A stretch of 64,000 nt of DNA from Blastocatellia bacterium (GCA_031409955.1 JANNYF010000088.1:82927-146926); one strand, 5' to 3'. Shown: positions 2,897 through 61,673, counted from the first letter of the stretch. Numbers and translations are program-made. The notes: generated by a model from the letters alone, not told the origin.

Positions 2897-3286
2897 GTGA
2901 TGTCAGAGATGACCGATAAATGTGCGCATCCGTCGTGTCATTGCCCAGCGCGAATGGATACCGAATATTGCAGCGAGTCCTGTGAACTGGCAAAAGATGA
3001 GGATGAACAGAACCTCCATAAAAAGGCCTCCGCTGAGTGGAAAAGCATTTTGCGTGCCGAGCGGAAAAGCCTGTGTTTACTGGCTGCGATGAAGGTATGC
3101 TACGGAAAACTTCACGTTGGTTGCGAGCAATTTCCCAGCTTGCGTTTCGGGTTTTGGGTTTTGGGGATCAGACTCAGTTCATCCAAATTTGCGGCTCCGC
3201 CGCCTGATGTGCGGGAGGTCTGTGACCTCCCGGCAGACTTGCGCTCTCTTCTCTTCGGGGCTACGCCCCTACCTGCTGGGGCATAG
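2897..3286 (+). CDS. Small Cys/His-rich ORF; the N-terminus resembles the bacterial metallothionein (SmtA/BmtA) motif. The true 3' end is uncertain
   Basis: MSEMTDKCAHPSCHCPARMDTEYCSESCELA fits KCAxxxCxC...YCSExC. The ORF has no stop before 3286, yet it runs through a hairpin-rich, protein-unlike region (3100-3350). Confidence 0.3.
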   Translation: MMSEMTDKCAHPSCHCPARMDTEYCSESCELAKDEDEQNLHKKASAEWKSILRAERKSLCLLAAMKVCYGKLHVGCEQFPSLRFGFWVLGIRLSSSKFAAPPPDVREVCDLPADLRSLLFGATPLPAGA

Positions 3287-3381
3287 CCCCAAAAAGAAAA
3301 AGAGCAATCTCCCGGAAAGGCGCAGCCTTTCCGCACATCAGGCGGCAAAGCCGCAGGAAATAAACAAAATTTGGAGCTACT

Positions 3382-3597: not shown

Positions 3598-5466
3598 TCA
3601 TCGTGTAAAATTCAGTGGCGGTTTCATTCCTGCACCCAGATAAAAGCTGGTGTGCGGCGGTTGATTATATGCGACGTTTTGCCACGCGATGCTCAGGCGA
3701 TATTGCGGATCGTGCATCAAGGTAGAAAGCCGATATTTCGTCGGGATCGTGGTGGTGTAAATCCGCAGCTCTTTATTATCCGTCGTGCGCCAGATGACTT
3801 CTTCGCGCCAATCACCGAATAAATCCGCGCTCAAAGTTGGCGTCGCTTTCGAGCCGTTGTTTGCGGTGCAGCCTTCAGCGGTCAGGATCGTATCAAGCTT
3901 GCCGTTTTGCCAGTCCCATTTGGCAATCACGTTGCGATCCAGCAATTCGCGCAGCAAATCGCCGTCCCACCAGATCGCAAAATTCATCGAACGCGGAGCT
4001 GCACCAAGGCGCTCGCCTTTGGCATTCTTCAGCCCTTCCGCCCCACCCCACATTTCTGCGCCCGGATGCCGTGGATCAATGTCCGCTGCCACGCCACGCC
4101 CGACGTCTTTGTTGGGATCACTCGTCCACAAAATCGTTCCTGTTTTGGCGTCATACAGCGCGGCGCCGGGGCCTTGCGTGTTCTCTTCGATTTCGTGAAT
4201 GCCATAGACCTCCAGGCCGGGACGCGTCGGGTCAAGGTCGCTGACGTGCAACGCATCGCCGTGCCGCAGTCCGGTGGAATACAAACCCTTGCCGTTATCA
4301 TCCACGCACATCGAACCGTAAATGATTTCATCTTTGCCATCGCCATCCACATCGGCGACCGAAAGATTGTGATTGCCCTGTCCCGAAAACGCTGCCAGGC
4401 CCGGCTGCGAGGAATCAAAGACCCAGCGCGAAGTCAGCTTGCCGTTGCGCCAATCCCACGCCGCCAACACCGTTCTGCCGTAATAACCGCGACACATTAC
4501 GACGCTTGGTCGGCGACCATCAAGATAGGCAACGCCAGCCAGAAAGCGGTCGGCGCGGTTGCCATTGTTATCGTTGCCGCCGTTGCCCCCGATGCCGCCC
4601 CATCCGCTTAAATCGCCGCGTGACGGAATGTAATCCACCGTCGCCAACGCCGCGCCTGTCCGTCCGTCAAAGATCGTGAAGTATTCCGGCCCGGTCAGAA
4701 CTTTTCCGAGCGTCGCTGCCTCTTTGCTCACCCAATCGGCTTTGGCATCGCCAATGATTTTGCCTTTGCCGTCCGTTGTGCCGTCCGCCGTTTTGCACGC
4801 GAGTTCCGCACGTCCATCGCCGTCCAGGTCATACACCATGAACTGGGTGTAGTGCGCGCCTTCACGAATATTTTTGCCGAGGTTGATGGTCCAGAGCAAT
4901 GTGCCATCGAGCTTGTACGCCTGAAAAATGGGGGGATCGGTCAATCCATTTTGCGAATTATCGCGCCCTCGCCCCGTTTGATGCAGCACGATTTCATATT
5001 CGCCGTCGCCATCCAAATCGCCCACTGACGCATCGTTGGGCGTGTATCCCGGCGGCGTTTGCAGCGGAAGCGAAAGGTATGGCTGCGCGTTGGCTGAGAG
5101 TGAAAAAGATTGGCTGGCTGCCTGTTCGCGGTTTTTCAGTAGCGGGCGTACGAAATACGCATTCGCGCTTGTCAGGTCAGCTTTGGCATCAATGAAACTC
5201 GTCACATCCGTGATCGGCTTGTCATTGAGCTTTGTCGCTTTGCCACCATTGGTCGTGCGATACAAATTGAAAGCGATGTCGGCGGAATCTGTACCGAGCA
5301 AGCGCCAACCGACATAGACTTTGCCTGCACCTTGATTGATCGCCACGACACCGCGCCCAAGCCGCTCCATTTGCCGTTGCGCAAACGCTACATTGCACAA
5401 AAAACAGCAGGTGATGAGTAATCCCAATCCGTGTTCCAAGAGGTTTTTGTGAGTTGATCGAACCAT
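3598..5466 (-). CDS. Rhamnogalacturonan lyase, polysaccharide lyase family 11 (YesW/YesX-like), secreted
   Basis: N-terminal signal peptide. Repeated Ca-binding beta-propeller motifs (VGDLDGDGEYEIV, VYDLDGDGRAELA, VADVDGDGKDEII) typical of PL11. Length 622 aa. Confidence 0.8.
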   Translation of the reverse strand: MVRSTHKNLLEHGLGLLITCCFLCNVAFAQRQMERLGRGVVAINQGAGKVYVGWRLLGTDSADIAFNLYRTTNGGKATKLNDKPITDVTSFIDAKADLTSANAYFVRPLLKNREQAASQSFSLSANAQPYLSLPLQTPPGYTPNDASVGDLDGDGEYEIVLHQTGRGRDNSQNGLTDPPIFQAYKLDGTLLWTINLGKNIREGAHYTQFMVYDLDGDGRAELACKTADGTTDGKGKIIGDAKADWVSKEAATLGKVLTGPEYFTIFDGRTGAALATVDYIPSRGDLSGWGGIGGNGGNDNNGNRADRFLAGVAYLDGRRPSVVMCRGYYGRTVLAAWDWRNGKLTSRWVFDSSQPGLAAFSGQGNHNLSVADVDGDGKDEIIYGSMCVDDNGKGLYSTGLRHGDALHVSDLDPTRPGLEVYGIHEIEENTQGPGAALYDAKTGTILWTSDPNKDVGRGVAADIDPRHPGAEMWGGAEGLKNAKGERLGAAPRSMNFAIWWDGDLLRELLDRNVIAKWDWQNGKLDTILTAEGCTANNGSKATPTLSADLFGDWREEVIWRTTDNKELRIYTTTIPTKYRLSTLMHDPQYRLSIAWQNVAYNQPPHTSFYLGAGMKPPLNFTR

Positions 5467-5484: not shown

Positions 5485-6324
5485 TTATTTGGCAACGCGC
5501 AATGGCGCGGCTTTGATGGATTCTGCCTGCGGAGAAAAGAACGCGCTGAGCCGATTAGGTTGCAATGCCTTCAAGCCCGCGATGACGGCTGCCGCGTTGA
5601 GTTCCGCGCCTTCCCGACTGGTATGCGTATGTTCGTCGGCGAACAGGGCCTCGACTTTTTCTGCTCCCAGCGCTTCGTATTGCTGCGCGATGATTTCGTT
5701 CAGGTCAAGGAACGCGACTTTCGTTTCTTTCGCTATCGCCGCCGCCCACGTACCGTATTGATCGCGGGCGATTTTTCCTTCTTTCCAAATCTTGCGCGGC
5801 ACGGGCGAGCAAATGACAGGCGTCGCGCCTTTGGCTTTGGTGTCGGCCACGTACTTGCGCAAGTACCAGCCGTAGCTGTGAACGACTTCATGTTTTTTGG
5901 TGATGAGGTTGTCAATCTCTTCGCTTTCTTCGCCGATGCCCTTGATCGTGCCACGCGCACGCGACGTGTCATTGAGTGCGCCACCGTCGTTATGCCCGAA
6001 TTGAATCAAGACGAAATCGCCCGGTTTCATTGCCGCCAACACTTGTTCCCATAAGCCTTCGGTTTGATAAGTACGACTGCTGCGTCCGCCGCGCGCGCGA
6101 TTGAGTACCGTGATTTTCGCCGCATCGAAAAACGTCACGAGTGGTTCGCCCCAGCCCCATTGCTTATTCGCGCCATCGCCGCTCCCGTTTTTGACCGTTG
6201 AATCGCCCACCAGAAATATGGTTGGCAATGTCGCTGCGGGTTTTTGATTCGGTTGCGCGGTGAGGCCGCTGTAACTGAGAAGACAAAGGAAAAGCCAATA
6301 GATATTTCGTTGCTGAAATCGCAT
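5485..6324 (-). CDS. Rhamnogalacturonan acetylesterase (SGNH hydrolase, CE12)
   Basis: Signal peptide. CE12/SGNH blocks GDSTV, GWG and GHND. It lies adjacent to and co-oriented with the PL11 lyase. Confidence 0.8.
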   Translation of the reverse strand: MRFQQRNIYWLFLCLLSYSGLTAQPNQKPAATLPTIFLVGDSTVKNGSGDGANKQWGWGEPLVTFFDAAKITVLNRARGGRSSRTYQTEGLWEQVLAAMKPGDFVLIQFGHNDGGALNDTSRARGTIKGIGEESEEIDNLITKKHEVVHSYGWYLRKYVADTKAKGATPVICSPVPRKIWKEGKIARDQYGTWAAAIAKETKVAFLDLNEIIAQQYEALGAEKVEALFADEHTHTSREGAELNAAAVIAGLKALQPNRLSAFFSPQAESIKAAPLRVAK

Positions 6325-6417
6325 AGTTGTATTTGTCTCGTGGTGAATTTAGACTGCCGATTGTAAGGCATTACTGTAATTATTCAGCGTCTTTGCCGCA
6401 TTAGCGGCAGTTTGAAT

Positions 6418-6549
6418 TTAGCCGTGGATTTCAATCCACGGAAGTGGTTCGATGTTTCCGGCGTCGCGTTAGCGACGATTGAATTCAGGTGTCGCTGATG
6501 CGACACGGGAGCCTTATTTTGCGCACCGTGGATTGAAATCCACGGCTAA
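6418..6549. promoter_or_regulatory. Paired 20-bp palindrome CCGTGGATTTCAATCCACGG (two copies 84 nt apart) in the divergent promoter between the CE12/PL11 operon and gene 6600
   Basis: TTAGCCGTGGATTTCAATCCACGG at 6418-6441 and its exact reverse complement at 6526-6549. Extra small palindromes (CGTCGCGTTAGCGACG, GTGTCGCTGATGCGACAC) lie between them. Confidence 0.55.
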
Positions 6550-6599
6550 AGTCAGCCGCCGCGACGCGGCAAAGAGGCTGACCAGTTACTCAAACCTAC

Positions 6600-7577
6600 A
6601 TGAATACACACCGCATAAAACTCTGGTTGTTGTTGGTTGTCGTGATAGTCATCGGGAGCGCGACTGCTGCTATTCGTGGCGCAAATCAACTTCAACCCAA
6701 AGCCAAAGCACTCGCATTTTTGCAACGCGAAGTTCCCGTCTGGAAACAGCAAAACGGTTGCTTTTCGTGTCACAACAACGGCGATGCGGCGCGCGCTTTG
6801 TATGCCGCGATTCGCAAAGGCCATCGCGTGCCTGCCGAAGTTTTAGCCGAGACCAATGCGTGGGTCAGCGACCCAAACCGTTGGGAGCAAAACAAAGGTG
6901 ATCCAGGGTTTAGCGACCAGAAGTTGGCGAACTTACAATTCGCCGCCGCGCTGGTGGCGGCCATTGAGGCTGGGCAAATCAAAGATCAGGAACCGCTGCG
7001 CCAGGCCGCGCGAAAACTGATGAACGATCAAAGCGCGGATGGTTCGTGGCACATTGATGCGGCGGGTACAGTTGGCTCGCCTGCGACCTGGGGGACGCCG
7101 TTGGCGACGTGGATGGCGCGGCAAACGTTACGGCAATCCGATCTGCCCGAAGCCAAAGACGCTGTGCAAAAAGCCGAGCGCTGGTTGCTGCAAGCAAAGC
7201 CCAACAATGTATTGATCGCTGCCACATTGGTATTGGCTTTCGCGCGTGACTCCGGCGTCGCAGCGCGTCGCCAACACACGGAAAGTTTGTCATTGCTCCG
7301 TCGCGCACAAACACAAGATGGAGGGTGGGGGCCGTATGCGGATGCGCCACCCGAATGCTTTGATACGGCGCTGGTGCTGCTCGCTTTGGAAACTGTCCGC
7401 GCACAAACAGGAATTGCTGCAATGATTCAGCGCGGTCGCGTCTTCCTGATCGCGCAGCAAAACACCGATGGAAGCTGGCCTGCGACTACGCGGCCTTCGG
7501 GCGGCGACAGCTATGCACAAATGATGTCCACGACGGGCTGGGCGACGCTGGCGTTGTTGGAAACGGAAGGACGGTAG
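6600..7577 (+). CDS. Membrane-anchored protein with a CxxCH heme-c motif and prenyltransferase/squalene-cyclase-like (alpha/alpha toroid) repeats
   Basis: N-terminal hydrophobic anchor. CFSCH appears once. Repeats are QSADGSWH, QTQDGGWGPY and QNTDGSWP. Confidence 0.6.
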   Translation: MNTHRIKLWLLLVVVIVIGSATAAIRGANQLQPKAKALAFLQREVPVWKQQNGCFSCHNNGDAARALYAAIRKGHRVPAEVLAETNAWVSDPNRWEQNKGDPGFSDQKLANLQFAAALVAAIEAGQIKDQEPLRQAARKLMNDQSADGSWHIDAAGTVGSPATWGTPLATWMARQTLRQSDLPEAKDAVQKAERWLLQAKPNNVLIAATLVLAFARDSGVAARRQHTESLSLLRRAQTQDGGWGPYADAPPECFDTALVLLALETVRAQTGIAAMIQRGRVFLIAQQNTDGSWPATTRPSGGDSYAQMMSTTGWATLALLETEGR

Positions 7578-8129: not shown

Positions 8130-9311
8130 TCAGCGAATCTCAAAAGGTAATTTGACAGAGGACGTCTTGAGGTGTCGCTCTACGCCTGTAAATAAATCCA
8201 CTTCAAACGCCTTGCCAATATTGTTGCCTGCGAGGTCTTCCACGGTTGTCTGGATGACCAGATCATACGTGCCACGCGGCCACGCCAGGTTGGGTGTAAA
8301 GCTCCAACGTTGCTCATGGTCTTCCAGCTTCACTTGGCCTGGCACAATCTGTCCGGCTGCGGTTACAACGGTGATGAGCCGTGATGATAACGCATGATCC
8401 ATCGGTTCTGGAAATAGCAGGACGAGCGGTTCGCGCGTGCCGGAAGACAGCGCGCTTATTTGCCAGCGCTGGGGATCAGGCGGTTCGCGGTCGGGCGCGA
8501 CGACGCGGAATGATTTCTGAAATTCTACTTTGAGTGGTGCGCCATTGCCGTCTTTCCAGGCTTGGCGAATGACCAGCGTATAACTCTTTCCGGTTTCCAA
8601 GGACGGGCCGATTTCTTCCAGCGGCAACACGCCGCGCTTGATGCGACCGGGATCAATGAATACGGTCAAGCGCGTCAAGGTCGTGTCCCACAACTCCTCG
8701 TCAATTTCCAGAAACGGCAATTCGACTTGCTTGCCTTTGTCGTCGCGCAGTTGAATAAATTCGTAAATGCCACCGCGTTGCATCGGCGCAGAAAAGTGCA
8801 GATAAAACTTGAGCAGGTTTTCCGGCACGACCGCGCCGCTGGGATAGACAGCCGTGATGATTGTCGTCGGCGTGACGTCGCGCGGCGGCAACCGAAAGGT
8901 GCTGGTGATGGGCGCTGCGATCACGTTGCCAGGCAACTGCGTGGGGCGAAACTCGGCGCGATAGCCCAAGCCCGGCTCCATTGGAAACTGCGGCGCAAAG
9001 CGCAACACATTGCCTTGCACACGATACGCGCCGAGCATCGCTACGTCAGCGGTTGCCGTGTACACGGCAAACAATCGTTGCCATTGCGACGGCTGCCAGC
9101 GAACGCGTTGCAGTTGTTGCAGCGTCGCGGCATTCAAGCCGATGATTTCGACCGCGATTTTATGGGTGTTGGTTGCATCAGGCGTCCAGCGAATGGTTTG
9201 CGCTTGCGCGGTCACAACGCAAAGGAACAAAGCGACAAAGCGGCAAAGAAACCGCTGATGGCTCTTTGTCGCTTTGTCGCTTTGTTCCTTTGCGTTGAAG
9301 ATTCGCGTCAT
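8130..9311 (-). CDS. Exported hypothetical protein
   Basis: 393-aa ORF with a signal-like segment FVALFLCVVTAQA. Its start codon and first ~25 codons lie inside a tandem-repeat palindrome (9218-9294). It starts 6 nt downstream of the upstream gene's stop (stop at 9317-9319). Confidence 0.55.
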   Translation of the reverse strand: MTRIFNAKEQSDKATKSHQRFLCRFVALFLCVVTAQAQTIRWTPDATNTHKIAVEIIGLNAATLQQLQRVRWQPSQWQRLFAVYTATADVAMLGAYRVQGNVLRFAPQFPMEPGLGYRAEFRPTQLPGNVIAAPITSTFRLPPRDVTPTTIITAVYPSGAVVPENLLKFYLHFSAPMQRGGIYEFIQLRDDKGKQVELPFLEIDEELWDTTLTRLTVFIDPGRIKRGVLPLEEIGPSLETGKSYTLVIRQAWKDGNGAPLKVEFQKSFRVVAPDREPPDPQRWQISALSSGTREPLVLLFPEPMDHALSSRLITVVTAAGQIVPGQVKLEDHEQRWSFTPNLAWPRGTYDLVIQTTVEDLAGNNIGKAFEVDLFTGVERHLKTSSVKLPFEIR

Positions 9312-50600: not shown

Positions 50601-50612
50601 GATCTGAGCAAT

Positions 50613-50703
50613 AGACCGCGGATGACGCGGATGTAGCGGATCAGCACGGATCAGGCAGAAAAAAATCCGCGCCCATCCGCGTCATCTGCGTCATCCGCGG
50701 TCT
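50613..50703. terminator. Long hairpin with arms made of tandem 9-mers (GGATGACGC-like), between the regulator and the flhA promoter
   Basis: agaccgcggatgacgcggatgtagcggatcagcacggatcagg...ccgcgcccatccgcgtcatctgcgtcatccgcggtct. The terminal 17 nt are exactly complementary. Confidence 0.6.
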
Positions 50704-50767
50704 ATTCCTCTACTCTTTCCGAAAACTAAATGACTCTGCCAATCTCTAATCTTCCTTCCCCAATTCG

Positions 50768-52931: not shown

Positions 52932-52994
52932 CACGTAGGAGCGAATTTATTCGCTTATGTTGACAAACTGAGCGAATGAATTCGCTCCTACGTG
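52932..52994. repeat. Inverted repeat with self-palindromic arms (GCGAATTTATTCGC / GCGAATGAATTCGC) between flhA and flhF
   Basis: CACGTAGGAGCGAATTTATTCGC ... GCGAATGAATTCGCTCCTACGTG. It is 21/23 complementary with a 17-nt loop. Confidence 0.6.
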
Positions 52995-55582: not shown

Positions 55583-56563
55583 CAGATGCTGCTGAATACC
55601 ATGTCCCGCAGGATGACCTTGAACGCCACTTACGCCAGCACAAAATCGAAAAACAGCCTGCCGACCACGGCGGATCGGCAAGCCTTGATCGAAGCGCATT
55701 TGCCCCATGTCCGCTACATCGCAGAGCGGATGTTGACGAAGCTACCGCCGTCCGTGGATCGCGATGATTTGATTGGTGCAGGGGTGTTGGGCTTGCTGGA
55801 TGCGGTCGAAAAATATGACGGGCTGCGCGGCGTGCAATTCAAAACGTACGCCGAAACACGCATTCGCGGCGCAATGCTGGACAGCCTGCGCGAATTGGAT
55901 TGGTCGTCTCGTTCGTTGCGGGCGCGGGCGCGCGAAATCGAAGTCGCCGCGTGCAAAATCGAGCAGGAAAAAGGGCGCATGGCGGAAGAAGAAGAGTTGG
56001 CCGCCGCGCTCGGCTTGGATTTACCCGCGTATCAAAATTTGCTAGGCGAATTGCGCGGCTTGACGCTGATTGAATTAGACAATCACGATGAAAATTCGCC
56101 CGGAGCCAGCGCGTGGCAAATCCCGGACAAACCGGATCGCTCGCCCCTGATGGAATACGAGCGCCAGGAATCCCGCGAGCAACTCATTACCGCCATTGAT
56201 CATTTGCGCGAGCGCGAGCGACAAGTGGTCGCGCTCTATTACGTCGAAGAGTTGACGATGAAAGAAACCGGCGCGGTACTCGGCTTGACTGAATCGCGCG
56301 TCTCGCAAATTCACACGCAAGCGTTACTTCACTTACGCGCGGCGTTTGCCAAAGACACGGAACAGTACCGCGTGCGGTTGCGAGCATGGCTCACAAGTGG
56401 AATCTCTGCTCGCTACCGCTCGCGGTACTGTTCCGCTGCTTCATTAAATTACGAACATGACAAACCACGAACTGCTGACCAAAGAAGAAATGTCCTCGCT
56501 GTTGGAACACAGCGACAACCACGCGCCCGAAACCGGCAAACGTCGCCGCGTGATGCCCTATAA
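55583..56563 (+). CDS. fliA: RNA polymerase sigma-28 factor FliA, with an unusual ~70-aa C-terminal extension overlapping fliM
   Basis: Sigma-70 regions 2, 3 and 4 are present (YVEELTMKETGAVLGLTESRVSQIHTQALLHLR). The start is uncertain (ATG 55583/55598/55610; the ORF opens at 55547). The frame has no stop until 56563. Confidence 0.7.
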   Translation, partial: QMLLNTMSRRMTLNATYASTKSKNSLPTTADRQALIEAHLPHVRYIAERMLTKLPPSVDRDDLIGAGVLGLLDAVEKYDGLRGVQFKTYAETRIRGAMLDSLRELDWSSRSLRARAREIEVAACKIEQEKGRMAEEEELAAALGLDLPAYQNLLGELRGLTLIELDNHDENSPGASAWQIPDKPDRSPLMEYERQESREQLITAIDHLRERERQVVALYYVEELTMKETGAVLGLTESRVSQIHTQALLHLRAAFAKDTEQYRVRLRAWLTSGISARYRSRYCSAASLNYEHDKPRTADQRRNVLAVGTQRQPRARNRQTSPRDAL

Positions 56564-61549: not shown

Positions 61550-61572
61550 GAGGCAACAAAATCGTGTTTCGT

Positions 61573-61673
61573 GACTCCTGATTCCCGATCTCTGATTCCT
61601 GACCACAAAATAGCAATTGGTTCAAGAATGCTTTTTGGTGAGCCGGAATCGGGAATCAGGAATCAGGAGTCAG
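61573..61673. repeat. Hairpin with arms of tandem heptamers (TGATTCC / GGAATCA) between flgA and flgH, inside the flagellar operon
   Basis: gactcctgattcccgatctctgattcctgacc ... ggaatcgggaatcaggaatcaggagtc. Confidence 0.6.

Follow-up and report, generated by a model that had tools for sequence, protein, structure and literature searches.

Positions 6418-6549 of a 64,000-nt stretch of Blastocatellia DNA (GCA_031409955.1 JANNYF010000088.1:82927-146926; hereafter the window) hold a pair of inverted palindromes in the intergenic region between a rhamnogalacturonan-lyase operon and a divergently transcribed gene. These palindromes are probably the arm cores of a non-autonomous mobile doublet that resembles a REPIN (repetitive extragenic palindromic (REP) doublet forming a hairpin), is built from double-hairpin units of the Rfam Acido-Lenti-1 type and would depend on an IS200-like Y1 transposase acting in trans. 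The element interrupts an intergenic region that is short in related genomes, and recurs as a doublet at unrelated loci. Its hairpins are under structural constraint, and its units are associated with Y1 transposase genes elsewhere.

The palindromes form the core of a larger symmetric element

The first-pass annotation described a 24-nt sequence present twice in exact inversion, 84 nt apart, with smaller palindromes between the copies. All of this was borne out by the sequence (6418-6441 and 6526-6549 for the copies; 6462-6477 and 6489-6506 for the palindromes between them). However, it had caught only the core of a larger structure. The pair takes the general form CCGTGGATT(TC/GA)AATCCACGG, inverted, at 6422-6441 and 6526-6545. 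The sequences at the two positions, CCGTGGATTTCAATCCACGG and CCGTGGATTGAAATCCACGG respectively, are exact reverse complements including the loop, and are perfect 9+2+9 repeats spaced 104 bp centre to centre. The inverted arms are longer than previously described, extending over 29 nt at 97% complementarity (6413-6441/6526-6554) while keeping the 84-nt separation. The pattern CCGTGGATTNNAATCCACGG, allowing up to three mismatches, was matched twice in the 64 kb against 0.00 matches expected (100 shuffles), and the stretch 6380-6600 folds as a single long hairpin on either strand (z = -13.9 for the plus strand and -11.1 for the minus strand).

The components of the complete gene-less doublet are listed in Table 1. 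Outward from the centre, each arm consists of an inner short hairpin, a variable spacer of ~20 nt, the CCGTGGATTGAAATCCACGG hairpin (hereafter H1), a (C/T)TA(C/A) tag and, after a linker of ~8 nt, an outer short hairpin (H2). As single-stranded DNA (ssDNA), the left repeat unit folds as a double hairpin (-15.4 kcal/mol, z = -6.4), and the right unit does the same. Since the Rfam model of Acido-Lenti-1 (RF01687), applied at its gathering score to 18 related loci, passed only one further unit, we built a covariance model (R1) from the set of oriented repeat units described below. Scanning the 64-kb window with R1 retrieved exactly two units (6391-6441, minus strand; 6526-6574, plus strand). The two inner hairpins gave weak matches, confined to the portion of the model that covers the linker and H2.

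The site is empty in orthologous loci

To the left of the element lies a CE12-like esterase gene, to its right a gene starting at position 6600. Four contigs encoding a PL11 rhamnogalacturonan lyase 87-90% identical to that of the window, in the same gene order, served as orthologous loci (L119-L122). Their gene pairs keep the flanks of the window locus, yet have 41-67 nt between them compared to 275 nt in the window (Table 1). The excess of the window over these empty sites is 208-211 nt, and removing 6376-6589 leaves 61 nt, equal to the ancestral length. The orthologous loci align with the window only outside ~6376-6589: the 45 nt beside the CE12 start codon are conserved in all five genomes, including the invariant CGGCAGTCTAAATTCAC, and the alignment stops where the element starts. 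R1 found no unit in this intergenic region of L119-L122, the only matches in L120 being weak and located elsewhere in the locus. The element is an insertion of ~210 nt into a divergent intergenic region of 61-67 nt, which took place after the split from relatives with an 87-90% identical PL11 lyase.

A 3.2-kb contig from an independent short-read assembly of the same locus and lineage (L118) also carries the element and ends inside its right arm. Repeated sequence breaks assemblies in this way, and the contig end possibly hints at a multi-copy state in the source genome.

The repeat is dispersed across unrelated genomes and phyla

A scan for the exact 20-mer of H1, covering one genome per species, revealed wide dispersal in genomes other than the source. 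Among the matches listed, the 20-mer occurred in more than 117 unrelated loci belonging to Acidobacteriota (Pyrinomonadaceae, Blastocatellia), Verrucomicrobiota, Bacteroidota, Chloroflexota, Ignavibacteria, Planctomycetota and others. Single metagenome-assembled genomes (MAGs) held at least 7-10 loci, judged by the entries per assembly prefix among the matches listed. A literature search for the 16-mer GTGGATTGAAATCCAC found it in no paper.

Dispersal was not restricted to the hairpin. The doublet recurs as a unit in further genomes of Blastocatellia and Acidobacteriota, at loci that are unrelated to that of the window (Table 1), and matches between the window and the 20-mer-selected loci were confined to the element. 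The two closest copies (L082 and L084) occupy two sites in one Blastocatellia MAG. The L082 match depended on orientation, with 90% identity one way versus 76% the other, which indicates that the left and right arms are distinct and that the doublet spreads as a whole.

Based on a crude call of open reading frames (ORFs), 83 clusters of repeats were located between ORFs (47 tandem, 23 convergent, 13 divergent) versus 20 within an ORF, most of these at its ends. Such extragenic placement is REP-like; the first-pass annotation had set pure REP behaviour against a regulatory role for the palindromes, and such behaviour is essentially what these loci display. Of the adjacent unit pairs (≤300 nt apart), 36 had the (-,+) arrangement of the window, with H1 facing inward and the tag and H2 outward, versus two in the (+,-) arrangement. 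Spacings within doublets fall into classes, of which 82-88 nt is the commonest (84 nt in the window). Single units and tandem unit arrays occur too.

One such array, in Dyadobacter frigoris (L011, 2400-3500), comprises at least 14 unit copies, head to tail, with a period of 76 nt. A CRISPR array was considered for these periodic copies and rejected, as the sequence between the hairpins is itself repeated and leaves no spacers. In the window, 6528-6538 (GTGGATTGAAA), inside the hairpin, resembles the 3' end of type I-C CRISPR repeats (...GTGGATTGAAAC), which may be coincidence.

The repeat unit is strand-asymmetric and structurally constrained

When oriented by its flank, the unit reads H1 (CCGTGGATT-(G/A)A-AATCCACGG), (C/T)TA(C/A/T), a linker of ~8 nt and H2, the latter having a 5-6 bp stem and a loop of 3-4 nt, often CTACG; the unit is strand-asymmetric. 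CTA or TTA followed H1 in 125/150 copies, which allowed these 125 to be oriented, and the majority tag, CTAC (GTAG on the other strand), was present in 64/125 oriented units.

The outer hairpin is kept by compensatory changes and is therefore conserved in structure rather than sequence. Across 65 distinct units, double compensatory changes were observed in 5/6 H2 pairs. In total, 95.8% of H2 cells were paired, compared to 28-44% when the partner columns were slid by 1-3 positions, and none of 500 shuffles reached the observed pairing values. G-U pairs were very rare in the stems.

Units flank genes for IS200-like Y1 transposases

Y1 transposase genes adjoined the units in 10/117 of the 8-kb loci selected by the repeat. 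In L024, an ORF of 153 aa with an HUH motif is flanked by three minus-strand and three plus-strand units, and inverted repeats surround the Y1 gene, as in a REPtron, in L024, L107, L077 and L108. Four associated genes from other genomes matched Pfam Y1_Tnp (PF01797) with 86-103 bits, and the associated enzymes passed the cut-off of NCBIfam NF033573 (IS200/IS605) with 65-80 bits. All of these enzymes (149-153 aa) share the motifs (D/N)H(I/V)H, WQ and YIxNQxxHH, and their C-terminal tail is conserved. By these motifs, they would belong to TnpA-Y1 subclass 1.2, whose published signature they match.

The association was also tested in the opposite direction, using 80 metagenome loci picked by the Y1 protein alone. 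R1 units were arranged as (-)gene(+) around the Y1 gene in L185, L188, L203, L138 and L184. A generic double-hairpin detector identified the expected orientation in 13/71 loci, the opposite orientation in two, and neither in 710 shuffled flanks. Inverted flanks with scores of at least 40 were present in 32/71 loci, and the H1 differences between protein-selected loci were compensatory changes. Each arm of the window element aligned over its full length with both the upstream and the downstream flank of the Y1 gene in L185, L188 and L203. These flanks, beginning with the equivalent of the inner hairpin, start 1-13 nt from the start or stop codon. The window element therefore amounts to both flanking arms joined at GAATTC, the position at which the gene, absent here, would be found.

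When L024, L037, L046, L107 and L077 were compared with L185, L188 and L203, the 20-nt hairpin was identical beside Y1 proteins from different phyla with a mutual identity of only 38-52%. Y1 proteins that are 57-68% identical adjoin hairpins with compensatory differences. The selection of loci through the exact 20-mer biases this comparison.

By analogy with IS200/IS605 TnpA and E. coli TnpA-REP (PMC3479197, PMC6006769), the hairpins would form in single-stranded DNA, for example on the lagging-strand template, and would be bound by a Y1 transposase encoded elsewhere in the genome. Cutting and rejoining beside the tag tetranucleotide could then excise or copy the gene-less doublet and insert it in trans.

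Acido-Lenti-1 as a possible REP-like DNA repeat

RF01687 was the sole Rfam family matched in the window (6526-6571, plus strand), at a borderline 37.1 bits versus a gathering score of 37 (E = 8.5e-05). The left unit was not reported by this model even at E values up to 10, and the CCGTGG-type hairpin in general is borderline for it. Both window units nevertheless display the RF01687 layout of two hairpins joined by a GCUA-containing linker of ~12 nt. In the units and the family alike, an 8-9 bp short-loop hairpin is followed by GCUA(A/C), ~8 nt and a 5-6 bp hairpin, and the Rfam seed holds near-identical variants such as CCGUGGGAUGAAUCCCACGGCUAA from NC_009483. The family is also multi-copy: its 89 seed representatives come from very few genomes and include tandem runs with a period of ~74 nt. 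One of these runs, in Lentisphaera (NZ_ABCK01000001, 416513-416780; 74-nt period), is like the 76-nt runs of Dyadobacter in that the full period is repeated, unlike a CRISPR array.

Rfam lists Acido-Lenti-1 as a small RNA of unknown function limited to Acidobacteria and Lentisphaerae, whereas the units described here behave as inserted and dispersed DNA, occur in many more phyla and form the arms of Y1 genes. The motif was classed as 'probably RNA' from its covariation by Weinberg et al. 2010 (PMC2864571), who gave no function, and a 2026 preprint states that little is known still about Acido-Lenti-1. On this basis, one or both units in the window could give rise to a structured non-coding RNA that might regulate the neighbouring genes. 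The RF01687 match at the gathering score and the covariation of the outer hairpin, confirmed here, agree with such a role, and a mobile repeat may be transcribed as well. Covariation, however, is equally expected for hairpins recognised as ssDNA and does not separate RNA from DNA. Insertion polymorphism, multi-copy dispersal, 74-76 nt arrays, inverted doublets and the concentration of the 89 representatives in very few genomes are all DNA-level behaviour. The rarity of G-U pairs and the failure of RF01687 to report the left unit also count against an RNA gene, as does the lack of a promoter-like site in the region, although the scan says little for this phylum. Overall, we regard a small RNA gene as improbable.

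In the stems of the Weinberg seed, A·C mismatches outnumbered G·U pairs by 37 to 8, mostly inherited within Lentisphaera araneosa, while in our own set of units the two were balanced (8 to 9). As A·C corresponds to a G·T wobble on the other strand, the excess in the seed might suggest that the better-folding strand is the complement of that used by Rfam.

We lean slightly, and with reservation, towards Acido-Lenti-1 being not an RNA gene but the REP-like DNA partner of TnpA-Y1 subclass 1.2. The two would make up a third system in the style of REPIN/RAYT (RAYT, REP-associated tyrosine transposase), with three-hairpin arms, gene-less doublets, a range of at least eight phyla, and a hairpin that is 20/20 identical beside enzymes of 38-52% identity. 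The partnership is supported by the association tests in both directions. It gives a testable identity to an Rfam family whose function is still called unknown, and candidate substrates to a Y1 subclass thought to be without any. If true, annotation matches to Acido-Lenti-1 mark mobile repeats, which are also assembly breakers, and not regulatory RNAs.

Comparison with known Y1-associated repeats

The element was compared with four groups of repeats linked to Y1 enzymes. With the REP sequences, bacterial interspersed mosaic elements (BIMEs) and REPINs mobilised by RAYT (TnpA-REP) (Nunvar 2010, PMC2817692; Bertels & Rainey 2011, PMC3116915; Ton-Hoang/Messing 2012, PMC3479197), it shares short extragenic palindromes with a tetranucleotide tag, GTAG on the complementary strand being the majority tag of this family. 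Its doublets are likewise inverted, form a single long hairpin and, in other genomes, are scattered as numerous copies. The inverted placement of the same repeats around an HUH/Y1 gene, as in the REPtron, is shared as well. It differs in having three hairpins per arm versus one, in the tag of the window copy (TTAG, not GTAG), and in its partner enzyme, which is IS200-like with a Y---Q--HH motif and, falling below the NCBIfam cut-off, is not a class 2 RAYT.

With IS200/IS605 and its gene-less derivatives (palindrome-associated transposable elements, PATEs), the system has in common a Y1/HUH transposase matching PF01797 and NF033573, subterminal hairpins, and small non-autonomous derivatives consisting of the ends only. 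The ends of IS200/IS605, however, are two different hairpins on the same strand without inverted repeats, whereas the arms here are inverted copies. TIRtrons, which pair tyrosine transposase genes (TIRYTs) with 'double palindromic TIRs' (terminal inverted repeats; Di Nocera et al. 2013, PMC3733652), are similar in that palindrome-containing inverted repeats flank the gene and some families are moderately abundant and dispersed, including in Acidobacteria. Most TIRYTs belong to subclass 2.1 and are characterised by a GGGGWSAS motif and a helix-turn-helix (HTH) tail (Quentin et al., PMC6006769); the enzymes and repeats described here have neither.

Subclass 1.2 was defined by (D/N)H(I/V)H, WQ, YIxNQxxHH, a length of ~148 aa and a C-terminal tail, and was described as low-copy, not IS-like, without IS-type terminal structures, and mostly cyanobacterial and from Bacteroidetes (Quentin et al. 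2018, PMC6006769). As far as a motif comparison goes, the repeat-associated enzymes appear to share the signature. In contrast to the published description, inverted multi-hairpin repeats lie on either side of their genes, whose hosts include Acidobacteriota, Ignavibacteria, Verrucomicrobiota and other phyla. The element works like a REPIN, departing from REP-RAYT systems in one defining feature, the enzyme class, and from IS200/IS605 in another, its arms being inverted rather than on the same strand. It is best filed with the known REP-like repeat doublets of Y1 transposases.

Several results weigh against mobilisation by a Y1 enzyme in a REPIN-like manner. Neither a Y1 transposase gene nor a further copy of the unit was detected in the 64-kb window (R1 scan and Y1 gene search), so that the enzyme, if present, must be encoded in another part of the genome. 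The enzymes found with the repeats do not qualify as classical RAYTs, reaching 21-24 bits with NCBIfam REP_Tyr_transpos (NF047646) versus a cut-off of 80, and their nearest solved structures are the transposases of ISDra2 and IS608, not E. coli TnpA-REP. Quentin et al. 2018 (PMC6006769) list subclass 1.2 without REPs. Clear inverted flanks were present in only about half of the protein-selected loci. The tag in the window is TTAG/CTAA rather than the canonical GTAG/CTAC, as it is in ~21 other units. Finally, comparing the sequences that border the full-length copies (window, L082, L084, L054, L027 and L099) revealed no consistent target motif or duplication; TTACT borders the window copy on both sides but neither L082 nor L084.

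Other explanations for the palindromes

An ordinary miniature inverted-repeat transposable element (MITE), bounded by terminal inverted repeats and dependent on a DDE transposase, or a palindrome that had expanded locally by chance, would be unrelated to Y1 enzymes. The size of ~200 nt, symmetry, lack of genes and inverted ends are what one would expect of a MITE. The junctions, however, show no evident target-site duplication, the arms coincide over their full length with Y1-gene flanks, Y1 genes are present in 10/117 of the repeat-selected 8-kb loci, and single units and tandem arrays occur, unlike in MITEs bounded by terminal inverted repeats. We consider this explanation very unlikely.

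A pair of operators, in which a dimeric transcription factor (a distinct regulator, as the first-pass annotation had it) would bind both 20-bp palindromes and loop the ~100 bp between them to control the divergent CE12-PL11 and 6600 promoters, fits the perfect 9+2+9 palindromes 104 bp apart in a divergent intergenic region and the presence of two other paired palindromes upstream of genes in the same window. It is excluded for practical purposes by the absence of the region from four orthologous copies of the gene pair and by the dispersal of the identical 20-mer, unrestricted to any regulon, over more than 117 unrelated loci of many phyla, where it also occurs in tandem arrays and next to transposase genes. 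The strand-asymmetric multi-hairpin unit with its covarying second stem likewise points to folded single strands and not to duplex recognition. The other suggestion of that annotation, a family of palindromic mobile or structural elements, agrees with the insertion, the mostly extragenic dispersal, the preferred arrangement of doublets and the identity of the arms with Y1-gene flanks elsewhere. A REPIN-like doublet of Y1-associated units therefore remains the explanation we favour.

Neighbouring genes and features

The element lies, as previously annotated, between the start of the CE12-PL11 operon (6324, minus strand) and gene 6600 (plus strand) (Table 1). A search for the product of gene 6600 found no record of it. 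The conserved block adjacent to the CE12 promoter is intact beside the insertion and includes GTGAATTTAGACTGCCG (6343-6359), which was invariant in the five genomes compared. The control region of the rhamnogalacturonan operon is this short conserved block beside the CE12 start codon, not the palindromes, which removes a false lead. On the opposite side, only 10 native bases precede the ATG of gene 6600, so its transcript must start in the element or read through it; the palindromes, as a recent insertion, may have separated this gene from its promoter. A promoter scan of 6200-6720 returned no sigma-70-like sites, though such a scan says little for an acidobacterium. A role as terminator was rejected: one terminator-like site was predicted (6393-6410, plus strand) where chance alone would give 0.8, and none of the genes reads into this site. 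As a finding on the regulation of the rhamnogalacturonan operon the element is ordinary; as a lead for specialists in mobile DNA it is modestly interesting.

Table 1 Coordinates of the element, its parts, related copies and flanking features. Positions refer to the window; L numbers denote loci in other assemblies.
Feature	Position	Strand	Identity or length	Basis
Whole element, two-fold symmetric gene-less doublet	6376..6589		~200-214 nt	Inverted pairs, long-hairpin fold, blastn, empty-site length
Core common to copies in other genomes	~6385-6580			Comparison with L082 and L084
Outer, weaker inverted ends GTAAyTnnTCAGC	Reach 6376 and 6589			Inverted pairs
Left repeat unit: 20-nt hairpin, CTAA tag, 8-nt linker, outer hairpin	6391..6441	-		R1, 66.1 bits, E 1.5e-15
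Left H1 palindrome CCGTGGATTTCAATCCACGG, 9-bp stem (sequence complementarity), 2-nt loop	6422..6441			Sequence
Tag TTAG beside left H1	6418-6421			Sequence
Left outer hairpin TGCCGC-ATTA-GCGGCA (H2 type)	6394..6409			Sequence, R1, ssDNA fold
Left inner hairpin CGTCGC-GTTA-GCGACG	6462..6477			Weak partial R1 match, 6462-6484(-), to linker + H2; alignment to Y1-gene flanks
Centre of symmetry GAATTC; position of the Y1 transposase gene in related loci	6481..6486			Sequence, flank alignment
Right inner hairpin GTGTCGC-TGAT-GCGACAC	6489..6506			Sequence, weak partial R1 match 6483-6505(+), fold, flank alignment
Right repeat unit: H1 6526-6545, tag CTAA 6546-6549, linker, outer hairpin	6526..6574	+		R1, 61.7 bits, E 2e-14; Rfam RF01687; ssDNA fold
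Right outer hairpin GCCGC-GAC-GCGGC	6558-6570			Sequence
Copy in L082	6387-6590		90% identity	blastn, unrelated flanks
Copy in L084	6384-6582		87% identity	blastn, unrelated flanks
Copy in L054	6413-6576		83% identity	blastn, unrelated flanks
Copy in L027	6413-6588		80% identity	blastn, unrelated flanks
Copies in L099, L045, L087, L012			Shorter stretches matched	blastn, unrelated flanks
PL11 rhamnogalacturonan lyase	3598-5466	-		Downstream of the CE12 gene, 18 nt apart in the window
GDSL/CE12-like esterase ORF	5485-6324	-		ORF annotation
Native sequence beside CE12 promoter, outside element, retained	6325..6375	-		Alignment with L119-L122
Sole native bases between element and ATG of gene 6600, outside element	6590..6599	+		Sequence, alignments
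Squalene-cyclase-repeat protein ORF	6600-7577	+		ORF annotation
Intergenic region, CE12 to 6600-type gene, window			275 nt	
Intergenic region, CE12 to 6600-type gene, L119			67 nt	
Intergenic region, CE12 to 6600-type gene, L120			41 nt	
Intergenic region, CE12 to 6600-type gene, L121			64 nt	
Intergenic region, CE12 to 6600-type gene, L122			67 nt	

The 9-mer TGAATTTAG within the GTGAATTTAGACTGCCG block, located 24 nt from the insertion point, has the same sequence as the linker beside the left 20-nt hairpin (6413-6421). This sharing may be a coincidence or a hint of target preference. In one of the orthologous loci (L120, 1710-2110), whose PL11 is 89% identical, the CE12 and PL11 genes have another nested inverted repeat between them, ~400 nt long, with units of the same layout but other hairpins (TTAG-CCAGGGGT...ACCCCTGG; CCGGTGGTTCCACCACCGG-CTAA-...GCCCCTTCGGGGC).

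Other palindromes in the window

The first-pass annotation had likened the 6.4-kb pair to elements at 14.3 and 16.7 kb. The likeness holds for their geometry. The inverted pairs at 14303-14333/14402-14432 and 16645-16674/16722-16751 are built from a different palindrome, GC(A/G)AACT-NNN-AGTT(T/C)GC, which occurred in 0/203 fetched loci and could not be tied to the family of the 6.4-kb element. One of these pairs has GTAG in front of it and CTAC behind; the other has GTTG and CAAC in these places. Allowing up to one mismatch, this palindrome had five matches in the window versus 0.1 expected, one of them inside gene 6600 (6927-6943). It could represent a REPIN family specific to this genome or a genuine operator pair upstream of outer-membrane and neighbouring genes.

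The window is rich in long palindromes, as six more long inverted repeats were present (3190-3355, 9215-9297, 50606-50710, 52932-52994, 56358-56435 and 61572-61672), with arms of 26-48 nt and 79-97% complementarity. A 41-nt part of the repeat at 61.6 kb has a counterpart of 90% identity on a Blastocatellia contig (L082, 2992-3032).

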